Shown: positions 5,448 through 64,000, counted from the stretch's first letter. The stretch is 64,000 bases of DNA from a virus (IMGVR_UViG_3300044557_000151:59723-123722), one strand, 5' to 3'. Notes: generated by a model not told the origin, from the sequence alone. Numbers and translations are program-made.

Positions 5448-6509
5448 ATGACTAAATCAATTTCAGAAATCTATCGGGTTTGGCTTGATGGACAATCATC
5501 AGAGGAAACGGCAAAGGTTTACCGCAACTATGTTAACAAGTTCTGCTCCTATGTTTTTGACAAGACTCCAGAACAGTTGTCTGAAGACGATATTTCTTCA
5601 GACAACTTCTATCCGGGTCTTGTCCAAGATAAGTTTATTAATCGTTTACGCGATGAAGATGTGCAAGATTCAAGCATTCGTAATTATATGAACGCCGTGT
5701 CATCTTTCATGGATGCACTGGAATCAAACCGGGTTTCTTCCGAAGCAGACTTCCTATATATCAAGAAAAACGTACTAAACAAAAAGAGCCTGAAAAAAGA
5801 TGGTGGTCATGTCTCAATGATCTCGCGGAATGATCTTGCAGCGTTTGAGGATTTCTTGAGGAATCGGAAGTATCGTAGTAAGGCAGAAAACGTTGGCCTT
5901 AAGTATGCAGGCGTCGTGGACTTCATGTTCACCTTTGCAACTCGTGTTTCAGCTACATTCAATATCAAATGGTCAGATATTAAGGATATCACTGATATCA
6001 AAGGGAACACTGACAAATGTGCATATGTTCATGATAAGGGCAAGGGATCTGGTAGTCGGGCTAATCAAAAGGTAATTGCGCCAGACTACTATGCCAAGAT
6101 GCGTGAATTATACTTCACTGGCGACGAATCAGACACCATATTCCATGAATTAACTCAGGACACATTTACGCGAATGATGAAGGAGTTCTCTGAAAAAACC
6201 GGTCGGGATATGACTCCTCACTCAATTAAAGTTGGGGCGGTTAGCTGGTTGTACGAATTAACCCACGACATTGTCCTTTGCCAGCAATTTGCGGATCATG
6301 AAGATATTGAAACTACCCAACGTTATATCCGTCTAAGTGGTGCCAATCGTAGTAAGGGTACTTATATCATGTCTGAGGGTGTTAACGTATCAGATATTAA
6401 TGATATCTCACTTGAAGAGATTGCAGCAATTGTTAAGAGTGACCCCGTATTGGCATTCAACGTATTGCGAGAATACCGCGAAGCATCACACAAAGACCAA
6501 ATTGCCTAG
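5448..6509 (+). CDS. tyrosine recombinase/integrase-like protein
   Basis: N-terminal SAM-like core-binding region. C-terminal TPHSIKVGAVSWLYELTHDIVLCQQFADHEDIETTQRYIRL fits the integrase box II pattern HxxR...LGH...TxxYxH including the catalytic Tyr. Confidence 0.6.
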   Translation: MTKSISEIYRVWLDGQSSEETAKVYRNYVNKFCSYVFDKTPEQLSEDDISSDNFYPGLVQDKFINRLRDEDVQDSSIRNYMNAVSSFMDALESNRVSSEADFLYIKKNVLNKKSLKKDGGHVSMISRNDLAAFEDFLRNRKYRSKAENVGLKYAGVVDFMFTFATRVSATFNIKWSDIKDITDIKGNTDKCAYVHDKGKGSGSRANQKVIAPDYYAKMRELYFTGDESDTIFHELTQDTFTRMMKEFSEKTGRDMTPHSIKVGAVSWLYELTHDIVLCQQFADHEDIETTQRYIRLSGANRSKGTYIMSEGVNVSDINDISLEEIAAIVKSDPVLAFNVLREYREASHKDQIA

Positions 6510-6621: not shown

Positions 6622-7884
6622 ATGGTTGATCTGAAACTATATAAATATAACCAGAAAACTGCTTTTCCCAATGCGGATAGTATTTTTACTGCAAGAAGGT
6701 TATTAAGTGGATTATTTGAAGAATATCGTATTGATAATTTAATAAACGAATTTGAATCTGAGTTCCCAAAACTATCTTTCGAGGAGAAGGCTAAGCTTTG
6801 TCAGAAGTTTTCTGACTTTAATCTTCCATCATTTAACAGGGGTGCTTCGATTAGTTTTGCCCGTGCAGACGAGTTCGTTACGCGGGCAAATGTAAGTACG
6901 TTTTACGCATATGATAATACACTTAAGAAAGCGTTATTGTCTTTCTGCTATATTGATAATGACCAAGGAATCGCTCAGGCATCTCGGGCAAACAATCTTC
7001 TTCGAATTGCAATTCCTTACGAGAAAAAAGTAAACAAAACAATTTTCCAATGGGACAAATCCGAGTTCGAGTCCTATATCAGAGGAGTTCGCGAAGAATA
7101 TACTGACGTTATTACGTTCCAACAGGTCATGGTCACTCTATCACAGTTAATTGATGGGGCTAGGAAAGTTAGCAACGTCATTGTCGCGCCTTATGTGCTA
7201 CACGATATTGCTAAGGAATCCCAGCCGATTGTGAGCGAAATTTATCCAACCTTGAGTGACTTACATGAAGTCGCATATAGAATGGATGACCCACAAGCGT
7301 CTGCAATGGTAATCTTATGCTATTTAGGCGTAAAAATTAGCAGGAATTCAGAGTCTGACGAAATGCTCAGCCTAAAGAAGTCTGATCTTGATGGGAATGT
7401 GTTAACAATTTCTGGTAATGCGCCACGCAAAATCAAACTTGATAATCGAAGTGCAAACATCGTTAGAGCAGCAATTAGAACTAAATTCGAAATATTTGAT
7501 TCCGCTTCCGGGTCTCAACGGAAAATGTACTATGTGAACAGTGATCGAATTTTCCGGCCACTTGATACCAACCGAACAACTGAGCTGACTTGGGCAGGTA
7601 TGTCAAATCGAGTTCGGAAGTTTGCTAATGCGTATAAGGATTCATTCAACACGACCCAACTAATGAATGTTCGACGTTTTGAAACGGCAGGGAAAATGAA
7701 TAGTGTCCACACAATCCTCTCTGAAGAAGGAGTTGGAGATGATGAAATGTTTGAGACCTGGGACAGTCTCAAAGTATTGGACGATGCGTTAATGAAAACA
7801 GCAAATCGTTTTGGGCAAGACGCAATTAAAGCAATTTCTCGTATGCGTGTAAGATATCGGGAATATCTTAAATTAAAAAAATAA
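6622..7884 (+). CDS. divergent tyrosine-recombinase-like protein
   Basis: 420 aa. The segment ILCYLGVKISRNSES...LKKSDLD...ISGNAPRKIKLDN resembles the Arg-I region and strand of the integrase catalytic domain. The remaining catalytic residues are unclear. Confidence 0.35.
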   Translation: MVDLKLYKYNQKTAFPNADSIFTARRLLSGLFEEYRIDNLINEFESEFPKLSFEEKAKLCQKFSDFNLPSFNRGASISFARADEFVTRANVSTFYAYDNTLKKALLSFCYIDNDQGIAQASRANNLLRIAIPYEKKVNKTIFQWDKSEFESYIRGVREEYTDVITFQQVMVTLSQLIDGARKVSNVIVAPYVLHDIAKESQPIVSEIYPTLSDLHEVAYRMDDPQASAMVILCYLGVKISRNSESDEMLSLKKSDLDGNVLTISGNAPRKIKLDNRSANIVRAAIRTKFEIFDSASGSQRKMYYVNSDRIFRPLDTNRTTELTWAGMSNRVRKFANAYKDSFNTTQLMNVRRFETAGKMNSVHTILSEEGVGDDEMFETWDSLKVLDDALMKTANRFGQDAIKAISRMRVRYREYLKLKK

Positions 7885-15910: not shown

Positions 15911-15994
15911 TTGAGCTGAATTAATTATTCACCTGGTTTGACAACCCTCCAATTTAACTCAAACGTGTGCAGGACTGATCAACCTGTTACATAT

Positions 15995-16065: not shown

Positions 16066-16096
16066 TTATATATTTATAAGAAGAGGAGGTTAAAGT

Positions 16097-16780: not shown

Positions 16781-16798
16781 TGAATTGCATTCGCTTTT

Positions 16799-17344: not shown

Positions 17345-17348
17345 GAGT

Positions 17349-17421
17349 GCAACTGTAGCTCAGCGGTGGAGCGGCTGCTCAGAAGAGTAGAGTGTCGCTG
17401 GTTCGATTCCAGCCAGTTGTA
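17349..17421 (+). other. degenerate tRNA-like element (pseudo-tRNA, Phe-like loop CAGAAGA)
   Basis: Good acceptor stem, D-arm and T-arm (GCTGG-TTCGATT-CCAGC) are present. The anticodon stem cannot pair. Begins 4 nt after the mini-IS right end. Confidence 0.35.
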
Positions 17422-17574
17422 GATCCGTGGACTATGTCTAAAATACCTATGTTCTCCTGGTGTCGGTTTGAGGAGACTAACTTTTGGCGGGATGTTCGCA
17501 CATAAGATTGCGAACTTTGTTTCGGATAGTAAAACCGTTAGTCGTGATTGCGAAGTACAAGCTTTCGCGCATAT

Positions 17575-17648
17575 GCTTTCTTAGCTCAGTTGGTTAGAGC
17601 ACCTGACTGTTAATCAGGGTGTCACAGGTTCGAGTCCTGTAGAAAGCG
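17575..17648 (+). tRNA. tRNA-Asn(GTT)
   Basis: Acceptor GCTTTCT/AGAAAGC. Anticodon stem CCTGA/TCAGG with loop CTGTTAA. T-arm ACAGG-TTCGAGT-CCTGT. Confidence 0.85.
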
Positions 17649-17933
17649 TATCTGGATAAATTAAGTTTACGACCAAAAAGCATCCAGAGAAACGCTAACG
17701 TATTGCAGCTGGACTTTAGAGCGATACGAGAGGGCAATCAGCTGTCGGACGGCAGGAAGTTGTCGTAGGTGGATTTGCAACACTTATAGAAAAAGGCTGG
17801 CATGTTCTTGCGCACGAACAAAGCTGGTTAAGATTAAAGTGTGGCGCAGTAGTCGGATAGGTGATTAGTAGTCTGGTGGTCGCAGATGAAAGATCTTACC
17901 GGACTAGGTAGTTCGACTCTACCATCCACCATT

Positions 17934-18006
17934 GGTTGTGTGGTGTTAATGGCTAACACGCCTGATTGTCTATCAGGAGCTTAGGGTTCAATTCCCTACA
18001 CGACCG
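17934..18006 (+). tRNA. tRNA-Asp(GTC)
   Basis: Acceptor GGTTGTG/CACGACC. Anticodon stem CCTGA/TCAGG with loop TTGTCTA. T-arm TAGGG-TTCAATT-CCCTA. Confidence 0.8.
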
Positions 18007-18476
18007 TCAAGCCGAAAGGTTTGAGTTCTTTGCTGTTAATATAACTACCTATCGGATTGGCTAATGACCGCCGATATTTCGGGGATGTAACGGTCTCGAC
18101 AGGATATGCTTAACTGACAAAGCATGTAGAGTGATGACTTAATCATCAACTTGCTAAATGCAAAACAAAACGATTTAGTTGCGGCCTAAGTTTAACTTAG
18201 TATAGCAACACTTACCCCAACGTATGATACCAGATACAAGACGTTGGCTAAACAGGCTGGTGTAGGATGACACTTACTTATTTTCATAAGCTTATCCGAA
18301 ATCTATTGAAAATATGCTCGTCTACTCCGATTGCCCATTTGCGGAAGACGCTAAGACTAATAAGTGAGCTAAGCATGTAGAATTGTCAGATAGAAGCATG
18401 TGTTGGAAACGGGTTCAACTCCCGTCATCTCCATATAGTATGTCGTTACACAATAACATACTAGATATAGTGCAAC

Positions 18477-18564
18477 GGAAAGTTACTCAAGTGGCTGAAG
18501 AGGCGCCCCTGCTAAGGGTGTAGGTCGAGAAATCGGCGCATGGGTTCAAACCCCATACTTTCCA
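18477..18564 (+). tRNA. tRNA-Ser(GCT)
   Basis: Class II tRNA. Acceptor GGAAAGT/ACTTTCC, anticodon loop CTGCTAA, long variable arm, T-arm ATGGG-TTCAAAC-CCCAT. Confidence 0.8.
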
Positions 18565-26400: not shown

Positions 26401-26401
26401 G

Positions 26402-26464
26402 TAGACAAACACTAATGCGTTTAGTATACTAATACTCGTAAGTTAAACAAACACTAATGTGTTT
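26402..26464 (+). promoter_or_regulatory. promoter-operator unit
   Basis: TAGACA-N17-TATACT at 26402..26430. Second palindrome copy AAACACTAATGTGTTT at 26449..26464. Confidence 0.6.
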
Positions 26465-26579
26465 ATTGGAGGGTGCTAGTCGAGAAAACTCGTTACTTTA
26501 GTGACGAGATGAATCAACGTATTGGGCAATCACCGGTGTAGTGTTCTAATAGCGTACCATAGGGTACACGGGAAAGGAG

Positions 26580-27731
26580 ATGATAAATATTGTTTTAAAA
26601 GGCATTAAACTAAGAATATACCCTAGCAAAGAGCAACAGCTAAGTATAAAGCTTAACTTTGGATATAACCGATTTGTTTGGAATCAGATGCTGGGTATGT
26701 TACAAGAAAGATATGCTAATAACCCTAAGCTATCTTTTCCTAGCGCCTTTACTTTAAATAACTTGTTACCAACAATGAAGATAGAATATTCTTGGCTTAA
26801 CGATGCTGAAAGTCGTAGCTTACAAATAACCTGTAAAAACTTAGTTGATGCTTACAAGAAGTTCTTTAAGACCCATAAGGGGTTTCCTAAGTTTAAATCA
26901 AAGAAGTATCCTAAGCAAAGCTACCAAACAAATTCTACAATAAAGCTAAAGGCCAACGAAGTTAAGTTTCCGAAATTAGGCTATATGAAGTTTAAAGGTA
27001 GTAGCAAAAAACTAAATGAGATTACTAAGATTAAGCTAGGAACTATTAAACTTACACCTACTGGTAAATACTATCTTGTACTGATTGCAGAGTGTGAAAA
27101 CCAAGCACTCCCTAAATCAGGAAATCAAGTAGGTATTGATATGGGGTTAGCTGATTTGATGATTACTAGTGACGGTGTAAAGTATCCTACTTTAAGATTT
27201 GACAAGATACTAGCTAAGAAAAAACGTTACTGGGAAAAGCGTTTAGCTCGTAGACGACTTCAAGCTCAAAAAGAGATTGCTTGGGATAAGCATAATAAGG
27301 TATTAAATCCTAGGGAACTTTCCAACTTTAAAAACTATCAGAAAGCAAAGCTAATGGTTGCTAAGTATTCAGAAAAAATAGCTAACCAGCGTAAAAACTA
27401 CCTTCATATGCTTTCAAAACAGCTTGTATCACAATATGATGTGATTAAGATAGAAGATTTGAAAACCAAGAATCTTCTTAAGAATCATAAGTTATCTAGA
27501 GCAATAGCTAATGCAAGTTGGAAAGAACTTAGAAGACAACTAGAGTACAAGTGCTTATGGTATGGGAAACAGTTAGTCACTGTGAACCCTAGAAAAACCT
27601 CACAAATATGTTCTAGTTGTGGCTATGATGACGGTAAGCATACCTTAGATATTAGAGAGTGGACATGTCCCAAGTGTGGTGTTCACCACGACAGGGACAT
27701 TAACGCGGCTATCAATATCTTAAATGCTTAA
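26580..27731 (+). CDS. tnpB: TnpB RNA-guided endonuclease
   Basis: N-terminal KLRIYPSKEQ...FGYNRFVWNQ. RuvC-I GIDMG and RuvC-II IEDLKTK. C-terminal CSSCG...CPKCG zinc finger followed by RuvC-III DRDINAAINIL. Confidence 0.9.
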   Translation: MINIVLKGIKLRIYPSKEQQLSIKLNFGYNRFVWNQMLGMLQERYANNPKLSFPSAFTLNNLLPTMKIEYSWLNDAESRSLQITCKNLVDAYKKFFKTHKGFPKFKSKKYPKQSYQTNSTIKLKANEVKFPKLGYMKFKGSSKKLNEITKIKLGTIKLTPTGKYYLVLIAECENQALPKSGNQVGIDMGLADLMITSDGVKYPTLRFDKILAKKKRYWEKRLARRRLQAQKEIAWDKHNKVLNPRELSNFKNYQKAKLMVAKYSEKIANQRKNYLHMLSKQLVSQYDVIKIEDLKTKNLLKNHKLSRAIANASWKELRRQLEYKCLWYGKQLVTVNPRKTSQICSSCGYDDGKHTLDIREWTCPKCGVHHDRDINAAINILNA

Positions 27732-29311: not shown

Positions 29312-30448
29312 GTGGATACCTATCAAGCATACAAAGTCCGTATCTATCCCACTCAATTACAAGCTGATATGATTATGCAATTTATCGGAAATAGTCGATT
29401 CGTGTATAACCAAATGCTTGCCATGCAGGCTGATCGTTACAAGAACGGCGGAAGGTACGTTGGATACATGGCAATGTCCAACCTAGTCAAACCACTCAAA
29501 CAAGAGTACGCATTCCTCAAGCTGTCACCATCTCAATCGCTACAACAGGCGTGTGCGGATTTGAACGCCGCTTTCCAGAACTTCTTTGCTAAGCGCGCAG
29601 ACTATCCACGGTTCCACTCCCGAAAAGGTGCGAAGCAATCTATGCGGGTCATGCAGGCTTGTTCCATCATCGCTTCGGGAGTCAAGCTGCCAAAGCTCGG
29701 TATCATGCGTTTCCGTTATGGATATAGTCTCGACCCGTCACTTAAAATTCGGCAAGTGACCGTCTCGTACACCTCATCTCACAAGTTTTACGCCAGCATC
29801 TTAGTTAAATGCGAAAAACAAGCATTGTCTAAAACTGGTGAACAAGTGGGATTGGATATGGGCGTGGCTGACTTAGCTATCCAGAGCAATGGCAAGAAAA
29901 TTCCAACTCAGAAGCATGACGAGCTGGAACACTCTCTTCACATTTGGCAACGTAAGTTGGCTCGCCGTAGGGAGTTAGCCAAGGCGGAAATCGCTAAATC
30001 CAAGCACTATGACCACACTGAATTGACGCTTGATGACTTCTCCAATTACAACAAGGCGAAAATAATGGTTGCTAAGTTGCATGAGAAGATTGCTAACAGG
30101 CGGAAGGATTACCTACACAAGACGACAACCAAATTGGTGCGGGAATATGACCTTATCGCTATGGAAGATTTGAGGACCAAGAATATGGTCAAGAATCACC
30201 ATTTGGCGAAGTCAATTACCAATCAAGGCTGGAACATGTTTAAAACCATGCTTCAGTACAAGTGCGAGTGGTATGGGAAGACAATAGTGGTGGTAAACCC
30301 GCGGAATACCAGTCGCGTATGTTCTGATTGTGGTGTGGATAGCGGCAAGAAACCACTAGATGTGCGGGAATGGACGTGTCCAGGATGTGGTACATGGCAT
30401 GATCGTGATGTGAATGCAGCACAAAACATTTTGAAATTAGCAGTGTAA
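29312..30448 (+). CDS. tnpB: TnpB RNA-guided endonuclease
   Basis: KVRIYPTQLQ...GNSRFVYNQ. RuvC-I GLDMG, RuvC-II MEDLRTK. Zinc finger CSDCG...CPGCG. RuvC-III DRDVNAAQNIL. Confidence 0.9.
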   Translation: MDTYQAYKVRIYPTQLQADMIMQFIGNSRFVYNQMLAMQADRYKNGGRYVGYMAMSNLVKPLKQEYAFLKLSPSQSLQQACADLNAAFQNFFAKRADYPRFHSRKGAKQSMRVMQACSIIASGVKLPKLGIMRFRYGYSLDPSLKIRQVTVSYTSSHKFYASILVKCEKQALSKTGEQVGLDMGVADLAIQSNGKKIPTQKHDELEHSLHIWQRKLARRRELAKAEIAKSKHYDHTELTLDDFSNYNKAKIMVAKLHEKIANRRKDYLHKTTTKLVREYDLIAMEDLRTKNMVKNHHLAKSITNQGWNMFKTMLQYKCEWYGKTIVVVNPRNTSRVCSDCGVDSGKKPLDVREWTCPGCGTWHDRDVNAAQNILKLAV

Positions 30449-39493: not shown

Positions 39494-39804
39494 GCGAAAC
39501 CAAATATGATGTATTTGTTCGTCTAATGAGTAATTACCTTGTAGAGAAGATTCAGCTTGATAGTATAACGCGAGACCCCCACCACATCGATATTCAACGT
39601 GAAGCAGATTCGTGGTTGGAAGAATACAACCATGCGGTTGATAACGCGGAACGTCAGGTTGGATGCAAGGAATGTCGCCGAGGTGGAAGCTTAGACGTGG
39701 CAATCAAAATGGTTGAAAAGCTTACTTCGCAACTAATGTCTGCAATCAAATTCTGTCCATATTGCGGACGAAGAATCAACATAAAACTTTCTGACTTATA
39801 CTAG
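39490..39804 (+). CDS. small zinc-ribbon protein (paralog family)
   Basis: MSETKYDVF... CKECRRGG ... FCPYCGRRIN. Stop codon overlaps the -35 element of the next promoter. Confidence 0.45.
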   Translation: MSETKYDVFVRLMSNYLVEKIQLDSITRDPHHIDIQREADSWLEEYNHAVDNAERQVGCKECRRGGSLDVAIKMVEKLTSQLMSAIKFCPYCGRRINIKLSDLY

Positions 39805-39887
39805 ACAAACACTAATGTGTTTGGTAATATAATAAGAGTAGTCAAACACTAATGTGTTTTTAAGGCCGACTGCATCGGCCTTTTCTT
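39802..39887 (+). promoter_or_regulatory. promoter-operator unit with leader hairpin and intrinsic terminator
   Basis: TAGACA-N17-TAATAT at 39802..39830. RNA-level palindrome AAACACTAATGTGTTT at 39844..39859. Terminator hairpin AAGGCCGA-CTGCA-TCGGCCTT + TTTTCTT at 39862..39887. Confidence 0.55.
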
Positions 39888-50460: not shown

Positions 50461-50461
50461 G

Positions 50462-50558
50462 TAGACAAACACTAATGTGTTTAGTATACTAATCAGTGTG
50501 ATATAGACAAACACTAATGTGTTTTGGCTGACGTGAAATCACGCCAGTCTTTTTGTTT
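50462..50558 (+). promoter_or_regulatory. promoter-operator unit with leader hairpin and intrinsic terminator
   Basis: TAGACA-N17-TATACT at 50462..50490. Second TAGACAAACACTAATGTGTTTT at 50503..50524. Terminator GGCTGACGTG-AAAT-CACGCCAGTC + TTTTTGTTT at 50526..50558. Confidence 0.55.
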
Positions 50559-54068: not shown

Positions 54069-54228
54069 ACGCAGGTAAGCTTCATATGGAAGGCGTTTTC
54101 CAAGTAGAAGAATCAAAGCTTTTTACCTTCTTACAACAACACAACGAAATTAATCCACGTCAGTTGGTTCAATATCGACCACTTAGAGATGGTATTTACG
54201 AGGTTACATTGTGGAAGAAGGCTGCGTA

Positions 54229-54462
54229 ATGTATCGAGTTAATTCAATTCCGACACCTGGTTGGTTTGATTCCTACTTCGAAGTTGGACAGATCGTATCC
54301 CTGAATGATATCAAGGAAGAGGCGACCAGGTACGCAAACGCTTTCTGGGAACATGCCACTAAACCATCTGCCGATGTTGATTTTAATGTTCCAGAAAATT
54401 ATGCGGATTTCGCCTGTAATTACTGGATCAACTCGGAAGGCGACTTCGAGAAGATTGAATAA
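54229..54462 (+). CDS. hypothetical protein
   Basis: ATG 54229 within track frame 54211. Confidence 0.4.
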   Translation: MYRVNSIPTPGWFDSYFEVGQIVSLNDIKEEATRYANAFWEHATKPSADVDFNVPENYADFACNYWINSEGDFEKIE

Positions 54463-54575
54463 TTTTATCATGTGCAGGAAAGAAGACACGTTCTTTAAAG
54501 GACGTGATGAATTGCCTTCTTTTTAGCGCCAAAGGCGCTACACATGGTACGAAATCGTGTGGTATAATAAGCTAT

Positions 54576-55019
54576 ATGAAAGACACTAATAGACTTACGT
54601 ATGGTAGAACTTCTGTCTACAATCTAAATTACCACATCATCTGGGGAACTAAATACCGTAACCGGGTTCTGAAAGGAAATGTTGAGGTTACGCTCAAGCA
54701 AATTATGTATGAAATCGCAGAGCAATATGGTTTTAGCATCGACCACATGGAAATTGGTCAGGATGACCATATTCACTTGCTGGTGAGTGCACCGCCAAAA
54801 CTATCAGTTACCAATATTGTGCGATGGCTAAAAGGCATTTCAGCGCGCCAGCTATTCGTCGCGTGTCCGGAGCTACAGCGAAGTTACTGGAAACATGCAG
54901 GACGCCACTTATGGTCGCCCAGTTATTACGTAGAAAGTATTGGCACAACTAATCAGAATGCAGTCGCTAAGTACATTGATGACCAAAGGTTGAAGGAGGT
55001 GAAGATTAATGACAATTAA
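54576..55019 (+). CDS. tnpA: IS200-like Y1 (HUH) transposase TnpA
   Basis: YHIIWGTKYR and HIHLLVSAPP (HuH) motifs plus a downstream Tyr. ATG 54576 (track frame from 54504). Confidence 0.85.
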   Translation: MKDTNRLTYGRTSVYNLNYHIIWGTKYRNRVLKGNVEVTLKQIMYEIAEQYGFSIDHMEIGQDDHIHLLVSAPPKLSVTNIVRWLKGISARQLFVACPELQRSYWKHAGRHLWSPSYYVESIGTTNQNAVAKYIDDQRLKEVKINDN

Positions 55020-56148
55020 AGCTTATAAACTTAGGATCTACCCAAATGAGGCTCAAAAGCTTCAAATGGAAAAGAACTTTGGTATGTGTCGATTTGTATG
55101 GAACCAGCTTCTCGCTATGCAGAATGCGCGCTACAAGAACGGTGGTGACTACGTCAACGAGTTTGGCATGAATTACCTATTTAAGCCCCTGAAAAAAGAA
55201 TACCAATGGCTTAAAGAAGCAGACTCAACCAGCTTAATAGCTGTGAGCCACAATCTGCACTTAGCATTTAAAAACTTTTTCAAAAAGCATGAAGGGTATC
55301 CGAAGTTTAAGACTAAGCGGTTCACCCGCCCTGCATATCGTTCTAACGCAGTTAACCACAATATCGTTCTTATGGACGAGCAACATATTCGGCTGCCAAA
55401 ACTTGGATCAATAGCATTTCGATCTGGACAGTTACCAAGGGGTAAAGTTAAAACTGCAACAGTTACTAGAAGTCCCGCTGGTAAATACTATGTACTTGTG
55501 ACTACGGAAGTCGAAATAGAGAAATGGAACCCAACAGGCGCTAGTGTCGGCTTGGATATGGGAGTCGCTGACCTTGTAATCACTAGTGATGGTATGAAGT
55601 TTGCGACCAAACGGTTTGATAAAGCTCTTGCCAAAAAGAAACACTACTGGGAGAAACGATTGGCCCGTAGGCGCGCCTTAGCTCAAAAAGAAATTGCCTG
55701 GGATAAACACCTCAAGGTAGAATCGCCACGTCAGTTATCTGACTTCAAGAATTACATGAAGGCTAAAGAAATGGTGGCGAAATACAGTGAAAAAGTGTCT
55801 AATCAACGTCACGATTACCTTCAAAAGATCAGTACTGAGCTCGTTTCAGAATATGATGTGATTAAATTAGAAGACCTGAAAACCAAGGGCCTGATGAAGA
55901 ATCACAAACTGTCACGAGCAATTGCAAATCAGTCGTGGCGTGAATTACGTCTGATGTTGGAATACAAAGCAGCTTGGTATGGTAAGAGTATCATTGCCGT
56001 GTCTCCGTATAAGACCTCACAACGTTGTTCAGTATGTGGCTACGATGATGGCAAACATGAGCTAGATATCCGCGAATGGACTTGCCCACAATGCCATACT
56101 CATCACGATCGTGACATAAATGCCGCAAAGAACATTCTAGTCGCATAA
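55009..56148 (+). CDS. tnpB: TnpB RNA-guided endonuclease
   Basis: KLRIYPNEAQ...FGMCRFVWNQ. RuvC-I GLDMG, RuvC-II LEDLKTK. Zinc finger CSVCG...CPQCH. RuvC-III DRDINAAKNIL. Confidence 0.9.
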   Translation: MTIKAYKLRIYPNEAQKLQMEKNFGMCRFVWNQLLAMQNARYKNGGDYVNEFGMNYLFKPLKKEYQWLKEADSTSLIAVSHNLHLAFKNFFKKHEGYPKFKTKRFTRPAYRSNAVNHNIVLMDEQHIRLPKLGSIAFRSGQLPRGKVKTATVTRSPAGKYYVLVTTEVEIEKWNPTGASVGLDMGVADLVITSDGMKFATKRFDKALAKKKHYWEKRLARRRALAQKEIAWDKHLKVESPRQLSDFKNYMKAKEMVAKYSEKVSNQRHDYLQKISTELVSEYDVIKLEDLKTKGLMKNHKLSRAIANQSWRELRLMLEYKAAWYGKSIIAVSPYKTSQRCSVCGYDDGKHELDIREWTCPQCHTHHDRDINAAKNILVA

Positions 56149-56287
56149 AAAGCAAAGACCCAAATGGTCTATCGGCACGGGACGTGCCTTGGCTAATAAC
56201 CGTAACCTCTGCATTGTTAGTTTAATGCTAATGGTGTAAGTCGGCGGCGTTCCCAGAAGCTCGGTCATTCATGGCCGAGTAGTTCAC
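56149..56287 (+). ncRNA. putative omega-RNA scaffold / IS right end
   Basis: Nearly identical to 17245..17344. Hairpins GGCACGGGACGTGCC and CTCGGTCATTCATGGCCGAG. Confidence 0.45.
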
Positions 56288-56298
56288 GAATTCAATAG

Positions 56299-56356
56299 TA
56301 GACAAACACTAATGTGTTTGGTATACTATTAGACGTAGACAAATACTAATGTGTTT
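56299..56356 (+). promoter_or_regulatory. promoter-operator unit
   Basis: TAGACA-N17-TATACT at 56299..56327. Second palindrome copy AAATACTAATGTGTTT at 56341..56356. Confidence 0.6.
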
Positions 56357-56388
56357 TTGTTTAACAAGATGTTAAAGGGGAGATTAGT

Positions 56389-56880
56389 ATCACAGAAACG
56401 ATTCGACCTGATTATTACAAACAGGGCGCAAGTGAGACTTGGGACGACATCAAAGCATGGGGACGTACACCATACTTAGGTTTTATCCTTGGGAACACAC
56501 GAAAGTACATTGATCGATATTGGGGAAAGAATGGAGTTAAGGATTTACGTGAACTTCAAACATATCTAGCTCACGTCATTCAGGACCCTGATACTGTTAA
56601 ACCAGCAAAAGTTGCCGACATCCGCGCTAACGTGCAAAAAATTGTTAGCGATGCGGTTGAAGCGTTTGTAGATTCGGCTTGTGAAGATTCATCACAACTG
56701 ACCACCATTCAATTAGTGGTTACTGGATTGATCTCATACGAAGAAGACCTGATTAAGAAGGCTGACGAGACCAACGATGCTGGCGTTACTTTAAAGGAAG
56801 CAGCAGAAGCTGCTACCATGTTGGATGACACCGTCAAGGAGGCTACAACTGTTGAGCAAACGATTAACACTGAAGCGTGA
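56389..56880 (+). CDS. DUF3310-like phage protein, probable non-ATG (ATC) start
   Basis: The open frame from 56365 encodes ...RPDYYKQG..ETWDDIKAWG..GNTRKYIDRYWGK... upstream of the first canonical start (GTG 56632). SD AAAGGGGAG sits 6 nt before ATC 56389. Confidence 0.45.
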   Translation: MTETIRPDYYKQGASETWDDIKAWGRTPYLGFILGNTRKYIDRYWGKNGVKDLRELQTYLAHVIQDPDTVKPAKVADIRANVQKIVSDAVEAFVDSACEDSSQLTTIQLVVTGLISYEEDLIKKADETNDAGVTLKEAAEAATMLDDTVKEATTVEQTINTEA

Positions 56881-57130
56881 TTTCAACTTAACTCGGCTGT
56901 TCCTTAAGATGCGCCCTGATGCTGAACTATACGCTGCTAACGAAGATTCTACAACATTTACTCTTCGTAAGACCGGTTCGGGAATCTTGGGCGGAACTCT
57001 TGATCGTGAAGATGCCGAAAAGATGATGAAGACGAAAAAGGTCGTTGTGATTTATGAAGACCTTAACGAAATTGAGTATTACAACTTCACCAACGATTCT
57101 GAAATCTTTGGCTGGGTAATGAACAACTAG
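56852..57130 (+). CDS. hypothetical protein
   Basis: TTG 56852 after AAGGAGG. Track frame 56825. Confidence 0.35.
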   Translation: MSKRLTLKRDFNLTRLFLKMRPDAELYAANEDSTTFTLRKTGSGILGGTLDREDAEKMMKTKKVVVIYEDLNEIEYYNFTNDSEIFGWVMNN

Positions 57131-57139
57131 GAGGGAACA

Positions 57140-59419
57140 TTGGGACATTCAAACTCAATCAGCGTAACTGCAAAGCTTAAAACGTTACGCTATTCGTCTC
57201 CTGATCCGGAAAATCATTTCTTCATTGGAATATTTGAGGTCATTGACGCAAAAGGGTATGACCTTTCGTATTCCGAGCCATTCGATAAGCTGATTACCGT
57301 TAAGGGAAATGGAGAACCGATCACAGGGGTTACATATAAAGTCTCTGGGACCCTTGAACACAATAATCGATTCGGAGATCAATATCAGGTCTATCAACTG
57401 CCGATTGCGTTTGATTTAACTACTGCAACAAAAGAGCAGGTTCGGACATTCCTGGGATCATTTATCTCGAAAAGTCTTACAAACGCGATTGTAGATGGTC
57501 TACCTAATCCGGGCGAAGTACTTGTATCTGGAACAGTTGAAGAACTGTCACAGATAAAAGGTATCGGGGCGACAAAGGGCGAGAGTATCCTAAACAAAGT
57601 TCGATCACAACTCGATTACAGTGCCGCAATCGTAGCTTTGAAAGACTTTGGCTTTAACTTCTCTCCAAAAGTTGTTCAGAAAGTGGTTCAGGCGTTCAAA
57701 TCACCTGAAGGTGTAGCGTCCGCGCTTAACACCAATCCATATCTCATGACTCGTGTACCTGGTATTGGATTCCTAACTGTCGATAAAGTTGCTATCAAAC
57801 ATGGTATTCAACCAAATGATTCCAACCGGGTTCGCAGTTACATTCAATATTATCTACAAGAAGAACGTGAGAATGGCAATTCTTATGTTGAGGCAAAGGA
57901 CTTTGTCGTGAACCTTAACGATAAGATTTACGGAGTTGATATTCCGGGGGCGATTGAATACATTAATAAGTCGCCATTGTATTCGGTATACCAGGTTGAA
58001 GACGAAATGCGTATTTCATTGTCGTCTGTGAACCAGCGAGAACAGGCCGTAGCCAAAGAATTGAAACGGCTCGTATCATTCAACGGGAAGATGGGTTTCA
58101 AATCGGATCTCGTTGAAAGGGCTGTTGCTCATACTGAAGACAAGCAGGGATTTAAGTATTCAAAAATCCAACGAGCCGCAATTGACGAAATGGTAGACAA
58201 TAACGTCTATCTGTTACAAGGATTATCCGGGAGTGGCAAATCGTCATCGATTGCAGGGTTTGTCAATGCCTTGCGAGAACACCACTTTTCATTCACTCAG
58301 GTAGCTTTATCGGGGAAGGCTGCGAACAACCTCGAACAGATTACCGGTGAAGAAGGATCGACAATTCATCGTCGATTGAAGATTATGCCCGATCAAAAAG
58401 GGAAATACTTCTATGGTCCAGATCAACGCTTAGAAGAAGACGTCATCATTTTAGATGAGTTATCCATGGTCGATCTCGATATTTTCTACGCGTTAATCTC
58501 CGCCATTAAAGACGGTGGCAAGCTGATTATGATCGGTGATATTGCTCAGTTAGAGAGTATTGGGATTAGCGTTATGCGCGACTTTCTCACGTCCAATGTC
58601 GTTCCAACTCGCACACTTGATGAGATTCATCGTCAGGCGCAAAAGTCGGCAATTATCACACATTCAATTCAGATTCGTGGTGGCATCGTACCGGATGGCT
58701 TGGCAAAGTCGCCAGGTACAGTTCGTACCTACGGTGAACTGCAAGATTTAACCTACTCATTCGTTCGTAAGGATGGGGAGCAGGACAGCATCTTACATGA
58801 GTCAATTCGTATCTATAAGGAGTTGCTCAAAGAGCATAAGGTTGACGACATTCAAATCCTTATTCCAACGAAGAAGGGGCTTTGCTCAACCTTCACTCTG
58901 AATAAGGCGGGACAAGCGTTAGTAACACCACACCCAGACGACAAATCGAAACTTACTATCAATCAAGGTAAGGAAAACGAATTTGAGCTTCATGTAGGTG
59001 ATCGTGTTATCAACGTCAAGAATAATACAAAAACTCCAATTGATGACAACGGCAATCCAGCTCCTATCTTCAATGGGAACACAGGTGTCGTACTCAACTT
59101 ATCGAAAGGTGCGATCAAGATTTACTTCGATGGGATTGGAATTGTAAATGTCCTGCCAGATCACTTCAAGTATATCGAATTAGGATATGCAATTACGATT
59201 CATAAATCACAAGGTTCAACTATTCCCTATGTGATTGTTGCCTATCCATTCAACTACATGCTTAACAGTCGGGAATCACTTTATACAGCGATCACCCGCG
59301 CATCAAAACATTGCTGGGTCGTATCTTCTCCTTCGACGTTCGTTGAATCCGTTAAGAAGACAGCATCCACACAACACAACACTAGCTTAGACTATTATAT
59401 CAAAAGGGAGTTTCGTTAA
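57140..59419 (+). CDS. RecD-like SF1 DNA helicase
   Basis: N-terminal HhH (LSQIKGIGATKGESIL). Walker A QGLSGSGKSS. Motif V/VI region: ITIHKSQGST...LYTAITRASK. TTG start after AGGAGGG. Confidence 0.75.
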   Translation: MGHSNSISVTAKLKTLRYSSPDPENHFFIGIFEVIDAKGYDLSYSEPFDKLITVKGNGEPITGVTYKVSGTLEHNNRFGDQYQVYQLPIAFDLTTATKEQVRTFLGSFISKSLTNAIVDGLPNPGEVLVSGTVEELSQIKGIGATKGESILNKVRSQLDYSAAIVALKDFGFNFSPKVVQKVVQAFKSPEGVASALNTNPYLMTRVPGIGFLTVDKVAIKHGIQPNDSNRVRSYIQYYLQEERENGNSYVEAKDFVVNLNDKIYGVDIPGAIEYINKSPLYSVYQVEDEMRISLSSVNQREQAVAKELKRLVSFNGKMGFKSDLVERAVAHTEDKQGFKYSKIQRAAIDEMVDNNVYLLQGLSGSGKSSSIAGFVNALREHHFSFTQVALSGKAANNLEQITGEEGSTIHRRLKIMPDQKGKYFYGPDQRLEEDVIILDELSMVDLDIFYALISAIKDGGKLIMIGDIAQLESIGISVMRDFLTSNVVPTRTLDEIHRQAQKSAIITHSIQIRGGIVPDGLAKSPGTVRTYGELQDLTYSFVRKDGEQDSILHESIRIYKELLKEHKVDDIQILIPTKKGLCSTFTLNKAGQALVTPHPDDKSKLTINQGKENEFELHVGDRVINVKNNTKTPIDDNGNPAPIFNGNTGVVLNLSKGAIKIYFDGIGIVNVLPDHFKYIELGYAITIHKSQGSTIPYVIVAYPFNYMLNSRESLYTAITRASKHCWVVSSPSTFVESVKKTASTQHNTSLDYYIKREFR

Positions 59420-60126
59420 TGTCATACCAAACTATTACTAACTTCGAAGTCTTATACAAAGGTCAACGCGCATTCGTGCGTCGCACTTTTTTTGTCGGCG
59501 AAAAGGAATTCGCTGAAATCATCGTCTTCCCACATCGTGCAGAAAACGACTCTATCAATGTACCACGCGAAGAATTGCGCAGTATGCCTACTGAAAGTAG
59601 CTTAGAATTGGCTCAATTTGGTGCAATTGACGGCCTAGCTGACGGTGGCGCTGGTAAGGATGCTCGTGATATTTCAGACCAACCATTAGATTACCAAGAA
59701 TCCTACATGGAAAACTATCACTTTGCGATCAACAAGTACAACGCCGAACACGCTGAAGATGAAAAGAAGGAACAACAAACTGCCAAAGATACTACTGACG
59801 GTACAACCGCTGGTAAAGCAGATGGTGAAAAGGGTTCTGATCCAGCAGATTTAACTGGTAAGAGTGCTGCATACGTAACTGCTTATAACAAGGCTTACAC
59901 GACTGGCAAGGGTGTATATGACAAGGCTCAAGCTGACACCAAAGCCGGTACTGAAGCTGGTACTACAGATGGATCAAATGGTTCTGCTAAAGCTGATTTA
60001 ACTGGTAAATCAGATGCTTACACCACCGCTTACAACACGGCCTACACTACCGGTAAGGCAGCTTATGGTGCAGCTCATCCAGCAGAAGGTAGCGGTTCTG
60101 AAACTGGTACAACTCCAGAACCTTAA
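59419..60126 (+). CDS. hypothetical protein with C-terminal imperfect repeats
   Basis: Repeats of DLTGKSxAYxTAYNxAYTTGK. G/T/A-rich C-terminal tail. Confidence 0.45.
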   Translation: MSYQTITNFEVLYKGQRAFVRRTFFVGEKEFAEIIVFPHRAENDSINVPREELRSMPTESSLELAQFGAIDGLADGGAGKDARDISDQPLDYQESYMENYHFAINKYNAEHAEDEKKEQQTAKDTTDGTTAGKADGEKGSDPADLTGKSAAYVTAYNKAYTTGKGVYDKAQADTKAGTEAGTTDGSNGSAKADLTGKSDAYTTAYNTAYTTGKAAYGAAHPAEGSGSETGTTPEP

Positions 60127-60218
60127 TTTTAATAAAAGTATGGTAATGTAATCGCTTTCATGTTATAATATAGTTAATCCAAAAGGTGTTCTGGAAGATA
60201 TCTTAAAGGATTAATTAT

Positions 60219-60368
60219 ATGGAACACATTCAAACAAGTGATTACATTGCTCAGCTAAACTACCTCAACGACATCGGTCCCGGCGAATGGTGCACCTATC
60301 TATGGGACGAAGCGTTTAGTGAATTAGCTGACTTCTCGCCATTAATGGCATCATTATATATGGACTGA
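60219..60368 (+). CDS. hypothetical small protein
   Basis: 49-aa ORF below the track cutoff. Extended -10 element TGTTATAAT at 60160..60169 upstream. Confidence 0.25.
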   Translation: MEHIQTSDYIAQLNYLNDIGPGEWCTYLWDEAFSELADFSPLMASLYMD

Positions 60369-60375
60369 AAGAACT

Positions 60376-60402
60376 GGCGGTGATCGCACCGCTATTTCTT
60401 TT
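60376..60402 (+). terminator. rho-independent terminator
   Basis: Stem GGCGGTG-ATCG-CACCGCT followed by ATTTCTTTT. Confidence 0.5.
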
Positions 60403-60566
60403 GCCAAAAATAGCTTAAATAGTCTGAATTAGGTAAGGGAGACGCCAAATGAAGAGTCACGGACCACCAGGATAAAACCCGTATTTTATAACTACGATCC
60501 GCTCACAGAAGCGGGGATAAGGGACCCTACAACGTAGGGACGAAACCTACTAAACGAAAAGAGGAA
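60403..60566 (+). promoter_or_regulatory. structured 5' leader of the pnuC-like gene (candidate riboswitch/attenuator)
   Basis: 164-nt leader. SD-led mini-ORF MKSHGPPG (60447..60473). Hairpins CCGCTCACAGAAGCGG and GACCCTACAACGTAGGGAC lie ahead of the pnuC RBS. Confidence 0.3.
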
Positions 60567-61331
60567 ATGAACAACTTGGAAAACACTAACACAACTAAAT
60601 TTACTGGTACTTATTTTCAATGGATCAAGCATCAATTAACCGGATGGGACACTTTCCCATGGGCATTGTGGGGATTCGGTATCGGATTTGAATTAGCCCT
60701 GCTGCTCACCAATAAGATTACACCATTAGCTATCATTTCATTCATCGGCGTATTCTTCGGTATGTGGTGTACAGTCGCAATGTCGTCAGGCGGTACTGAC
60801 GCTAACGGTAATCGAGTAATCTCTCACTCGATTAATGGATTGTTGGGCGCAATCAGTGTAATCGCCTATGTCTATGTTAACTGGACCGCAGGGCACTGGT
60901 TCAGTGTCCTGGATCAATTTGCCTACTTCTTCTTAATCGATTTTGGTTTGATGATTAACTGGCGCACATGGGGACATGGCGAAAACGGCGGCAAGATGAA
61001 TGAACTCTCCAAAAAAGGCTGGGCAATCGTTACTGCTATTATCCTGATTGGTTGGTTTGCCTTCTACCATCTTGGCGTAGTATTAAACGACAGTAATCCA
61101 ATTTGGGATTCCCTCACGTTCGCTATTGGCGCTACGGCAAGCTGGTTGTGCTTCAAGCGTTACACATCGACATACACATTATGGATTTGTTCAAATATTG
61201 TAAATTTGGTTCTTTGGTTTACTGCCCTGCAAGCAGGGTATAGTCAATCAGCACTCGTTATGCTTGTTATGAACGTATTCTATATGGCTACTGCGATCTA
61301 CGGTAAGTTTGTGTGGAAGGTGGAAAAGTAG
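60567..61331 (+). CDS. pnuC: PnuC-family nucleoside/NMN transporter
   Basis: 254 aa, about 7 TM helices, Trp-rich. NWTAGHWFSVLDQF and the loop layout are typical of PnuC. Confidence 0.6.
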   Translation: MNNLENTNTTKFTGTYFQWIKHQLTGWDTFPWALWGFGIGFELALLLTNKITPLAIISFIGVFFGMWCTVAMSSGGTDANGNRVISHSINGLLGAISVIAYVYVNWTAGHWFSVLDQFAYFFLIDFGLMINWRTWGHGENGGKMNELSKKGWAIVTAIILIGWFAFYHLGVVLNDSNPIWDSLTFAIGATASWLCFKRYTSTYTLWICSNIVNLVLWFTALQAGYSQSALVMLVMNVFYMATAIYGKFVWKVEK

Positions 61332-61334
61332 TCC

Positions 61335-62780
61335 TTGCCAGTATCATTAACATTATCTCAAGTGCAACAACGTATCGACGAAAAGTTTAAGGAAAACATT
61401 GAGGTACATGATGACTTCGTAGGGTGGACACACCCTTGTACAATGAGTTGTCGAAAGTGCGGAACAAGCTGGTTTATGAATCCTAGAAATCTGTGTGACA
61501 TGCGACACGGATGTGGGTGCGACTCGTGTAACAAGAAGACCTTTCAACCTCACAATCTGAAAGCTGCCGAACAGGTACGGGACGAGATTCTTGATGCAAC
61601 CGACGGAACAACGCAATTGCAGGTAAACGCCTACACCCGTTCTCAAGAGAAGTGCGACTTTGTTTGCTTAATCTGTGGCAATACCTGGTGCGCCGTTCCG
61701 TCGGTGCTTTTATGGGAGTCTAAAAACAGAAGAACAACTGGTTGCTCAAAGTGTTCACGTAGGTTGCAGGCGCAAAGACAGCAGCGAACAATCGAAGATG
61801 TAAGAGTGTATGTCGCGGATTGTGCACCGGAAATCACCGTTCTTGCGTATGACCCAATTAAGCACCGTGTCGATATGAAGTGCGATAAGTGCGCGTATGA
61901 GTTTACTACAGGATTCGACTCTGATAAAGAAAAGGGGAAGACGCGCTTCCGCTGTCCTAGATGTACTCCTTGCGAATCATCTGGAGAACGGTTCGTTCGA
62001 CGTGTTCTTGACTACAATCAAATCGAGTATCAACAAGAATACTCGTACTTCAACACGATTGAGAAGACCTGGCAGCGATTTGATTTCTTGCTTCCAGTTC
62101 AAAAGCTAGTAATTGAAATCAATGGTGATCAACACACCAACGAATCGAATTCCTTCTACAAGACTCGCATGGTATACCTCGATAAAGTCAAACGTCAATG
62201 GGCGCTAGATCAAGGGTTGCATGTACTGGATATAGATTATCCAACGGAGTCCATGATTTCACAATTAGTTGGTGAGCTCGGTTTACTCGCTGTGCCTCCG
62301 TTCGATTACAAAGACTCGCGAGAGTCTGAATATCAGGACGTTATTGCGTATCTAACGTCGGGGCATAATCTTATCGAAACACAGGCCAAATTCAACATGG
62401 GTCCCAAGGTAGTGAATAGATACATTAAGATGCGCGGATACGCAAATTATTGGGATTTATACCACACTGAACGGATGAAAAGATTGGGACTAACAAATGA
62501 TCTCATCATCGATTGGCTTAAGCATAACCACTTCTCGCATATTGAAGAAGAGATCGGGATTACTAAGAAGTATGTAATTAACCATATACTTAATAATCCA
62601 GACTACCCATACACCAACCTAACCGACATCAAAGATGAAGCAATTCGGTCAGATGAATTTACAAAGTATCGCAAGACTCACTCCAAGCGAGCAACTAGTA
62701 AATACTTTATGACTGATGCAGCCCACATTATTAAATTAATTGGGGCTGAAAAATGGGATAGAAAAGTTGAGGTGTCGTAA
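61335..62780 (+). CDS. multi-zinc-ribbon protein with Vsr/DUF559-like PD-(D/E)XK endonuclease domain (paralog of 44921)
   Basis: Many CxxC pairs. GERFVRRVLDYNQIEY...FDFLLPVQKLVIEINGDQH...LHVLDIDY matches the nuclease domain of the 44921 protein. C-terminal HTH-like tail. Confidence 0.5.
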   Translation: MPVSLTLSQVQQRIDEKFKENIEVHDDFVGWTHPCTMSCRKCGTSWFMNPRNLCDMRHGCGCDSCNKKTFQPHNLKAAEQVRDEILDATDGTTQLQVNAYTRSQEKCDFVCLICGNTWCAVPSVLLWESKNRRTTGCSKCSRRLQAQRQQRTIEDVRVYVADCAPEITVLAYDPIKHRVDMKCDKCAYEFTTGFDSDKEKGKTRFRCPRCTPCESSGERFVRRVLDYNQIEYQQEYSYFNTIEKTWQRFDFLLPVQKLVIEINGDQHTNESNSFYKTRMVYLDKVKRQWALDQGLHVLDIDYPTESMISQLVGELGLLAVPPFDYKDSRESEYQDVIAYLTSGHNLIETQAKFNMGPKVVNRYIKMRGYANYWDLYHTERMKRLGLTNDLIIDWLKHNHFSHIEEEIGITKKYVINHILNNPDYPYTNLTDIKDEAIRSDEFTKYRKTHSKRATSKYFMTDAAHIIKLIGAEKWDRKVEVS

Positions 62781-62857
62781 GACCCTTATCGACAATGAGA
62801 CCTCGCGTCCGAGTGGGTGGAATGCCCATACATAATCAATGAAAGTGACGGTACAAT

Positions 62858-63589
62858 ATCATTCTGTACATTTTAGGATCAATTGGCGCTGGCAAGACAA
62901 GCCTAACCGATTTATTAGCAAAAGACCTACAAACTACCGCATACTATGAAGACATTAGTGGAAATGGCATGATTGGGAGTATGCTTGAAAAATTCTACGA
63001 ATCAGGGATTGACTCAAGAAAGCGCACGGGTGCGATGCTCCAGATCGCCTTCTTAACATTCCGTTACCAGCAATTAAAACGAGCAATTGTTGAACGTAAC
63101 GCTATTCTGGATTCTAGCCTCGAATCCGATTTTGTAATGGCAAAACAGTTGCATGACAACGGCGAAATTGATGATGTGGACTATAACATCTATACTACCT
63201 TATCACAAGAAATGCAGGCTAACGTGAATGGTATGCCATGGAGCGGATATCCAGATCTCGCCATCTACTTAAAGATTGATCCGGAGAAGGAAATCGAGGA
63301 GATTCAAGGACGTGGCCGCGAAATGGAAGATATCCGCAAAGACCCTGAATTGGTTGATTACTATCATCGCGTCAACAAAGCTTATCGCGAATGGTCTAAA
63401 GGTTATACTCGTGGAATTATGCTGACGATTGATCGTGATAAATACGATTTCGTTAATAATCTCGACGATCGCAACACTGTCCTAAATCAAATCGAACATA
63501 AACTTGTTGATCTCGGCAAGTTGTCCCCCGAAGAGTTTGACGCGATTCGTGCTCGCCGTGAACCATTAACTCGCGGTTTGCCGTTCTAA
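62858..63589 (+). CDS. deoxynucleoside kinase (dAK/dGK family), probable ATC/ATT start
   Basis: P-loop ILGSIGAGKTSL at 62870..62905 lies in frame upstream of the first ATG (62969), with no ATG/GTG/TTG after the in-frame stop at 62846. The C-terminus IQGRGREMEDIRKDPELVDYY...DRDKYDFVNNLDDRN aligns with Lactobacillus dAK/dGK. Confidence 0.75.
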   Translation: MILYILGSIGAGKTSLTDLLAKDLQTTAYYEDISGNGMIGSMLEKFYESGIDSRKRTGAMLQIAFLTFRYQQLKRAIVERNAILDSSLESDFVMAKQLHDNGEIDDVDYNIYTTLSQEMQANVNGMPWSGYPDLAIYLKIDPEKEIEEIQGRGREMEDIRKDPELVDYYHRVNKAYREWSKGYTRGIMLTIDRDKYDFVNNLDDRNTVLNQIEHKLVDLGKLSPEEFDAIRARREPLTRGLPF

Positions 63590-63756
63590 CAATCACAATC
63601 GTTCCATGGGCGGCGCTGATAGCCAAGTTCTACACATGAGTAGATCTAAAGTCCAAATAGTCACGTCATCTTAGAGGGTGACACAGCACTACATTATTAC
63701 AATTTCGATACAATATCGAGCGTCAATTGGAGACGATAACAGGTCAGCAGTTACAC

Positions 63757-63785
63757 AAAAAGCGCCCCTGAATAGGGACGCTTTT
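63757..63785. terminator. bidirectional rho-independent terminator
   Basis: AAAAGCGCCCC-TGAATA-GGGACGCTTTT, with an A-tract on one side and a T-tract on the other. Lies between the plus-strand dNK gene and the minus-strand rplS. Confidence 0.6.
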
Positions 63786-63809
63786 AATAAACATATAAAT
63801 ACCCGTGGA

Positions 63810-64000
63810 TTAACGGCGCTTTTCTTTGATACGCGCAGCCTTACCACGTAATGCCCGCAAGTAGTACAACTTGGCACGGCGTACTTGACCATGACGGGTA
63901 ACTTCGATCTTTTCAACACGTGGGGTGTGTAATGGGAAAGTCCGTTCAACACCAACGCCGCTGGAGATCTTACGAACGGTGTAAGTCGCAGAAACACCAG
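63810..64000 (-). CDS. rplS: 50S ribosomal protein L19, C-terminal part (gene runs off the window)
   Basis: Minus-strand translation ...[56 protein letters not shown] matches the L19 C-terminus. Stop codon complement at 63810..63812. Confidence 0.85.

Follow-up and report, generated by a model that had tools for sequence, protein, structure and literature searches.

A host-derived rplS (bL19) cassette, probably carried by a large Lacticaseibacillus phage, at the end of a 64-kb viral sequence

The stretch of viral DNA analysed here, 64,000 nucleotides long (IMGVR_UViG_3300044557_000151:59723-123722) and referred to as the window, most likely ends inside a host-derived rplS cassette carried by a large Lacticaseibacillus phage, and not at the edge of a prophage. 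We place the probability of this reading at about 0.8; it rests on relatives that are 91-98% identical to the window, which itself stops 196 nt into the cassette. An initial annotation had offered two options and preferred neither: that the phage-like region is an integrated element, a prophage or island that meets chromosomal DNA near the end of the window, or that the virus carries a bL19 of its own. The second is favoured because in the relatives rplS is followed by phage genes, with no trmD-rimM-rpsP context, and it is the prophage or island edge that did not hold.

Upstream of rplS the window consists of a non-structural phage block on the plus strand, the orientation of 45 of the 47 ORFs of at least 150 residues. 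The block encodes a DnaE-type polymerase, a DnaB-like helicase, a primase, exonucleases, RtcB, an RNA ligase and a thymidine kinase, together with nucleoside deoxyribosyltransferases, PnuC, several HNH endonucleases, three TnpB proteins, one Y1 transposase, six tRNAs and a tmRNA. Genes for capsid, portal, terminase or tail proteins were not found in the window. The last gene of this rightward early/replication block, identified by its ORF, by Pfam PF01712 and by its homologues, is a deoxynucleoside kinase gene (dNK, plus strand, 62969..63589), and the plus-strand block ends at 63589 just as had been stated. Phage dNK is 73-84% identical to chromosomal Lacticaseibacillus kinases, with about 30 N-terminal residues fewer, and looks to be a host-derived gene that adjoins the cassette and is older than the rplS capture.

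A non-coding phage spacer (63590..63804), without a match to the host chromosome, separates the kinase gene from the rplS cassette; part of it is shared with a relative that lacks rplS (L105). Within the spacer, folding and sequence comparison with L105 identify a two-way intrinsic terminator hairpin at 63758..63785, confirming the two-way terminator initially placed near 63757..63785. The hairpin has a folding energy of -22.3 kcal/mol on the rplS (minus) strand, where it is followed by a U-run, and of -14.0 kcal/mol on the plus strand, and none of 200 shuffles folded as well on either strand. A consensus terminator scan did not call it. It ends both the early block and rplS, and since its homologue (-17.2 kcal/mol) is present in the rplS-less L105, the terminator is older than rplS in the phage. 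For the same reason the idea that the terminator is an adaptation to integration was rejected.

The junction between phage and host-type sequence lies between positions 63804 and 63805. Five bases past the stop codon on the minus strand (63805..63809, TCCAC on the rplS strand) are identical to the host and form the 3' edge of the captured host segment; host homology ends there, 5 nt past the rplS stop. The host reads TAATCCAC followed by TGAAAAGGTCGC..., the window TAATCCAC followed by GGGTATTTATATG..., and past the junction phage sequence stands where the host has its native rplS terminator. GC content shifts from 42.4% in the phage block to 51.0% in the rplS part, in line with the compositional comparison that had been proposed. 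The break suspected within 63590..63810 is thus a real break in composition and homology, at 63804/63805, but most likely not the boundary of an integrated element. An assembly chimera at this position was considered and rejected. Junction-spanning k-mers recur in a separate assembly, that of Logan contig L001 (SRR16378546), which shows 100% identity over window 56262..63834 and may derive from reads of the same sample as the window; and the left junction is found at the same position in L101, a diverged relative from another sample.

The rplS 3' part occupies 63810..64000 on the minus strand and comprises the stop codon (63810..63812), 62 sense codons of the bL19 C-terminus (63813..63998, from the translation of 63809..63998) and two bases of the next codon. 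The gene is truncated by the window end, leaving 196 nt of the host-like cassette visible (63805..64000). The minus strand had been said to encode a textbook L19 C-terminus, and the translation contains every motif then quoted. All protein matches of the 62-residue fragment belong to PF01245 (Ribosomal_L19; best E 2e-26), so that the fragment is a bL19 family member far beyond chance; the full 118-residue copy in L101 carries the same annotation. All 62 residues are identical to the chromosomal Lacticaseibacillus L19 P0131, and with a full-length query the C-termini of P0131, P0132 and P0134, all chromosomal Lacticaseibacillus proteins, each matched the window at 62 of 62 positions. At the DNA level 63805..64000 is identical to the chromosomal rplS of the Lacticaseibacillus species of P0131 at 195 of 196 positions, the lone mismatch falling at sites that are variable among host strains too. 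A divergent rplS had been suggested by the 62-residue query, which returned short or partial proteins of at most 91% identity; this was overturned by the full-length chimeric query. A GTDB scan for L19 gave, among the matches listed, a best identity of 95% for protein and 83% for DNA.

Relatives that extend past the window end were reached through cluster membership of the kinase and its neighbouring proteins, as Logan contigs from other samples. L101 (ERR13111410, 8350 bp) is 96.5-98% identical to window 54158..64000, except for a stretch around 60600-62790 that differs, and it continues beyond. Its order is dNK, terminator, a complete rplS (118 residues, identical to P0131), 94 nt of host-like upstream region and a phage HNH gene. 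Host-like DNA in L101 amounts to only 456 bp (6827..7282, 98% identity), with non-host sequence from 7283. The HNH gene, on the plus strand, encodes an endonuclease of 268 residues with a C-terminal HTH domain (phrog_374, 5e-50; phrog_3377, 1.5e-44), and has tblastn matches in 1247 phage records. A single contig thus has viral genes on both sides of rplS, kinase on one and HNH on the other, where the window shows the left flank only.

The viral right flank is carried further, as far as endolysin and tail genes, by L103 (SRR13377823, 27.4 kb). This contig opens precisely 30 nt inside the host-like upstream region, and the remainder is without host homology; L104 starts at the same distance inside, and the right junction is common to L101, L103 and L104. 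L103 continues through the HNH gene and the gene for an XRE-type regulator into a minus-strand lysis/tail block encoding an endolysin (phrog_3393, 1e-111), a tail-assembly-like protein, a tail fibre (phrog_26419, 6.5e-44) and a tail protein (phrog_1887, 4e-37). In these relatives the cassette sits in a strand-switch region, between the rightward early/replication block with its dNK gene and two-way terminator, and the HNH gene, XRE-type regulator and leftward lysis and tail block.

The empty site is seen in L105 (SRR7685269, 35.2 kb), which holds helicase, PnuC, kinase (in a version of 242 residues), HNH, regulator and endolysin genes on one contig without rplS and has no host homology at all. 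Here the kinase terminator abuts the ribosome-binding site of the HNH gene. The HNH protein of L105 is 73% identical to that of the rplS-carrying phages, among which it is 97-99% identical. Relative to L105, the carriers have an insert of about 520 nt: a few bases come first, then the 456-bp host segment, then some 59 nt with a weak hairpin that faces the rplS promoter (-9 kcal/mol, no better than shuffled sequence). The genes trmD-rimM-rpsP are absent from L101, L103 and L105. With HNH and not trmD/rimM after rplS in L101, lysis and tail genes in L103 and uninterrupted phage sequence in L105, the integrated element of the initial annotation is contradicted for the relatives, and the inference of a temperate lifestyle that had been made conditional on it falls away.

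Further differences among these phages are seen close by. A gene for an HNH-type endonuclease of 481 residues (61335-62780), located between PnuC and the kinase in the window, is absent from L100, L101, L102 and L105, and a DUF7448 gene further left, between a 49-residue ORF and PnuC, is present in L100, L101 and L102 and missing from L105. Homing-endonuclease turnover surrounds the rplS cassette.

The anatomy of the complete cassette is given by L101. Its 5' boundary lies at position -94 from the rplS start codon, directly before TGCTATACT, which is predicted to be an extended -10 promoter. This is followed by an L19-leader-like hairpin, a Shine-Dalgarno sequence (AAGGAG), the CDS of 118 codons, the stop codon and the five host-identical bases; the host terminator was left out of the captured segment and the phage terminator stands in its place. 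Against Rfam RF00556 the hairpin scores 27.9 bits in L101 (E = 3e-4) and 23.9 bits at the host locus L087 (E = 3.5e-3), both under the gathering threshold of 36, and an Rfam search at gathering stringency reported no L19 leader. Five of the nine upstream differences between phage and host fall within this hairpin (L101 7208-7247, L087 9942-9981), and in the RF00556 alignment the phage hairpin has no non-canonical pairs, the host hairpin two, which suggests that the structure is kept in the phage copy. The 456-bp segment would thus represent a minimal self-sufficient transcription unit, from promoter to stop, and the phage rplS is a complete, apparently expressible copy that encodes a host-identical bL19 within phage DNA.

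To characterise the corresponding host sites, 12 loci encoding P0131 or P0134 were fetched, including that of the 3.4-Mb chromosome CP045068.1. The gene order in all 12 is rpsP-KH-rimM-trmD, a strain-variable island and rplS, followed on the 3' side by the native terminator, a 57-residue ORF, DUF896, UPF0154 and ABC transporter genes. None of the 12 has an insertion after rplS, and the 3' end is unoccupied throughout. Upstream of the host rplS, conservation resumes only at about -96, the sequence beyond being variable between host strains. The island between trmD and rplS in the host species (L085-L098) differs by strain, with glycosyltransferase, PilZ, EAL, Fic or MucBP genes.

Divergence is distributed unevenly along the cassette and its flanks. 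The window and L101 differ at 1 of 196 positions in rplS, and at 41 of 1010 in the flanks (Fisher p = 0.009), these being 29 of 794 in the kinase gene and 12 of 216 aligned columns in the spacer. L101 and the host CP045068.1 show no differences over the 362 positions of the CDS and adjoining 5 nt, as against 9 in the 94 nt upstream (p = 5e-7). L103 diverges from L101 by about 9% beyond the cassette, and over its first 30 nt it agrees with the host at every position, including four at which L101 is changed. The junctions lie at the same base in every phage in which they can be seen: the left one only in the window, both in L101, and the right one only in L103 and L104. Because the two junctions are the same in diverged phages and the rplS-less relative shows the empty site, a single capture is the simplest reading, and it would have come about by illegitimate recombination. 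Over two CDS copies and one fragment, the mosaic fits repeated recombination with the host rplS, perhaps combined with strong constraint; such recombination during infection would keep the CDS near-identical to present-day host alleles while the flanks diverged by some 4-9%. Against our reading, near-identity to the host gene is equally expected of plain host DNA, and the cassette has its 5' boundary where the host sequence itself has a natural breakpoint, being variable between strains upstream of -96.

The ends of the assembled contigs bear on the same question. L001 stops at window position 63834, exactly 30 nt (k-1) inside the host-like sequence, and at the right-hand edge of the shared segment L103 and L104 begin at the same depth. 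A de Bruijn graph breaks where the next k-mer has two predecessors; the sample of L001 therefore holds rplS in two contexts, and breaks at this distance are what would be expected of samples with both a phage and a host copy. The probable source of the window, a JGI contig of 123,722 bp, carries proteins identical to the kinase, PnuC and helicase of the window and no members of the HNH or late-gene clusters; either it stops within rplS or it continues into other sequence, which may be that of the host. A separate contig of 5,691 bp, with members from JGI and Logan, holds the genes for HNH, XRE regulator and endolysin. On the simplest reading the assembly was interrupted at the rplS repeat, leaving the window as the final 64 kb of its contig.

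One alternative accepts that the phage carries the cassette and supposes that in this one contig the sequence runs from the 456-bp repeat on into the host, either by homologous (Campbell-type) integration at rplS or by an assembly join. A near-identical stretch of 456 bp is a good substrate for homologous recombination, de Bruijn branch points occur at both cassette edges in samples that contain phage and host, and the absence of any HNH or late-gene cluster member from the 123,722-bp contig points the same way. Against this, nothing beyond the cassette lies in the window, a contig that simply ends in the repeat is a simpler account given that the HNH, XRE regulator and endolysin genes lie on the 5,691-bp contig, and no junction with phage DNA occurs at any of the 12 host loci. 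We consider such a passage improbable.

Site-specific integration is the usual explanation for an rplS gene found next to phage genes. If it applied here, an element would have integrated just past the rplS stop, 63805..64000 would be host chromosome, and trmD-rimM-rpsP would lie beyond the window. The identity of 195 in 196 positions and the location of the junction 5 nt past the stop codon are as expected from such an event, and two tyrosine recombinase genes are present in the window (5448..6509 and 6622..7884). The 3' end of rplS is moreover a known attachment site, for GBSInt3 in group B Streptococcus (PMC7487436), and a prophage lies between gph and rplS in S. pyogenes (PMC8115907). Of the viral contigs in IMG/VR, 55 carry rplS, and in nearly every one the gene lies close to a contig end or right at it; in the E. 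coli P2-like record ON470592 the flank is ffh-rpsP-rimM-trmD-rplS. What makes a prophage boundary very improbable in the present case is the sequence on the far side of the gene: in L101 rplS is flanked by phage DNA on both sides with only 456 bp host-like, L103 has lysis and tail genes beyond the cassette, and in both the region upstream of rplS is occupied by phage genes and not by the host operon. L105, furthermore, joins the two flanks directly, without an attachment core, and none of the 12 host loci is occupied. The recombinase genes, the only ones found, lie about 56 kb from the junction. The search for attachment repeats that had been proposed gave no support to integration either, as the host sequence 3' of rplS recurs nowhere in the window; the far end of a supposed element would lie outside it. 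A pair of prophages flanking rplS, also considered, was rejected, since it presupposes two distinct attachment sites and L105 contradicts it.

With rplS most likely inside the phage, the question of its effect there arises. The encoded protein is identical to host bL19 and can therefore only alter dosage or timing. The cassette would be transcribed from its own promoter during infection and would add bL19 to the pool. The extra authentic bL19, possibly autoregulated through the leader, might then allow 50S subunits still to be made as host expression fails, which is the weakest step of the scheme. As judged from sequence, the likeliest benefit of a phage bL19 would be sustained ribosome production while host expression collapses. 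A stronger version holds the cassette to be an adaptive device, a copy of host rplS refreshed at each infection that maintains the bL19 supply and 50S assembly after shutdown or degradation of the host genome, or that counters a host cut in ribosomal protein synthesis; we regard this as unlikely. Were it true, the 456-bp identity would also offer the phage a constant point for homologous recombination with the chromosome, within an essential locus.

The cassette may instead be a neutral passenger that sits in the phage without effect, either picked up recently by accident or kept uniform through gene conversion only. This is compatible with the structural conclusion that rplS lies inside the phage, and we see it as a real possibility, if at somewhat worse than even odds. 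A protein identical to that of the host brings no new property, the close relative L105 does without the cassette, and the tRNAs, the tmRNA and the kinase, with its similarity to host kinases, are other traces of host gene uptake. The same two junctions in phages whose flanks differ by 4-9% speak instead for persistence through diversification. The unit is also complete from promoter to stop, with a hairpin on each side, of which only the one 3' of rplS is statistically supported, and its changes lie upstream of the CDS with none inside it, a pattern that gene conversion alone could also give.

The protein concerned, bL19, belongs to the ribosomal core and sits at the subunit interface, in contrast to the loosely attached proteins that make up most earlier reports. 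Virus-encoded ribosomal proteins have been catalogued by Mizuno et al. (2019, Nat Commun 10:752; PMC6375957), the common cases bS21, bL12, bL9, bL31 and bL33 being loosely bound, exchangeable proteins, with viral bS21 about 54% identical to its cellular homologues. In that survey bL19 appears in the supplementary tables only, on three uncultivated host-associated contigs, two of them predicted to be temperate, and in no isolate (PMC6375957). The present gene resembles the catalogued cases as a ribosomal protein gene acquired from the host, with an intact Pfam domain, lying among phage genes and presumed to act through the host ribosome. Unlike them, it is 99.5-100% identical to the host at the DNA level, carries its own promoter and leader, and is present in some and absent from others of a set of close relatives. 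It is better supported than the earlier bL19 examples, and is a rare, well-documented virus-borne gene for a core ribosomal protein. The leader resembles RF00556 in that the host gene and the phage copy share a consensus-like 5' UTR hairpin, both scoring below the gathering score and both lying outside the window.

S. pyogenes phage 1802.2 is among the prophages located at the 3' end of rplS (PMC8115907). As in this phage, the GBSInt3 phages, the IMG/VR proviruses that end in rplS and ON470592, the present rplS converges on phage DNA with a junction just past the stop codon. In those prophages, in contrast, rplS keeps its chromosomal neighbours (ffh-rpsP-rimM-trmD in ON470592), whereas here the upstream side is phage too, with lysis and tail genes next; and whereas the IMG/VR contigs mostly have rplS at the very edge of the element, the relatives place it inside the phage genome. 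Another parallel is offered by cyanophage psbA, a host-derived auxiliary gene that exchanges with host alleles. Like psbA, the present rplS is a host-derived gene in a phage of lytic type, with a pattern suggestive of phage-host recombination. Unlike psbA, it encodes a core ribosomal protein and not a metabolic or photosynthetic one, and the exchange is deduced from mismatch distributions in two phage copies.

When a ribosomal protein gene turns up in a viral contig, a prophage edge or contamination is often suspected, and rplS is a common prophage attachment site, which usually puts it at the extreme end of predicted proviruses. The present case can be checked from both sides, as the junctions are base-exact, the empty site in the phage is known and none of the host sites sampled is occupied. 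With it, bL19 joins the ribosomal proteins that a large phage carries, and a host-identical CDS set in diverged flanks offers a tractable system for the study of phage exchange with an essential host gene. For annotation pipelines the lesson runs both ways: in most cases a terminal rplS does signal the edge of a prophage, yet there are exceptions.

No near DNA relative of this phage was found in reference collections. Megablast of the ends of the window against phage and plasmid records gave only tRNA and TnpB fragments, and scans of viral, genome and metagenome collections for exact patterns of the junction and phage-side sequence gave no match. In IMG/VR the best match to the kinase was 39% identical, and the helicase had none.

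The window contains several other features. The two tyrosine recombinase genes are adjacent to each other, the first Xer-like (PF00589, with SAM-like N-terminal domains) and the other with a MrpR_C_cat annotation. A gene for a MazF/PemK-like toxin (1383-1751) is preceded by a small ORF, the module spanning 1064-1751. Together, the toxin and the nearby recombinases could point to a module for temperate or plasmid-like maintenance, in a large phage that otherwise looks lytic and may be temperate or plasmid-like in lifestyle. The three TnpB genes (IS200/IS605 OrfB) lie at 26580-27731, 29312-30448 and 54504-56148, one of them paired with the Y1 transposase, and two Logan contig breaks coincide with TnpB copies. 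A tRNA cluster at 15836-18564 includes tRNAs for Arg, Leu, Asn, Asp and Ser, an ARAGORN prediction at 17348-17422 whose anticodon is oddly two bases long, and a tmRNA of 353 nt with the tag peptide AKQNDLVAA.

A promoter-like element is repeated through the window, composed of TAGACA, a perfect palindrome (AAACAC-TAAT-GTGTTT) and TATAAT or TATACT, usually with a second copy of the palindrome about 20 nt later. Copies are found at 15745-15821, 26401-26466, 39802-39859, 50461-50524 and 56296-56356, with single copies near 6548, 9003 and 21420. From their sequence these appear to form a set of phage promoters that share an operator for a single regulator. Some host strains have a match to this promoter/operator motif at 29 of 32 positions (23 of 24 in the core; L087 9873-9904, window 15745-15776). 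The host copy lies at -128..-97 of rplS, in a strain-variable region 3 nt outside the 5' boundary of the captured segment, and could be a site for a shared regulator or a trace of past exchange between phage and host at the rplS locus.
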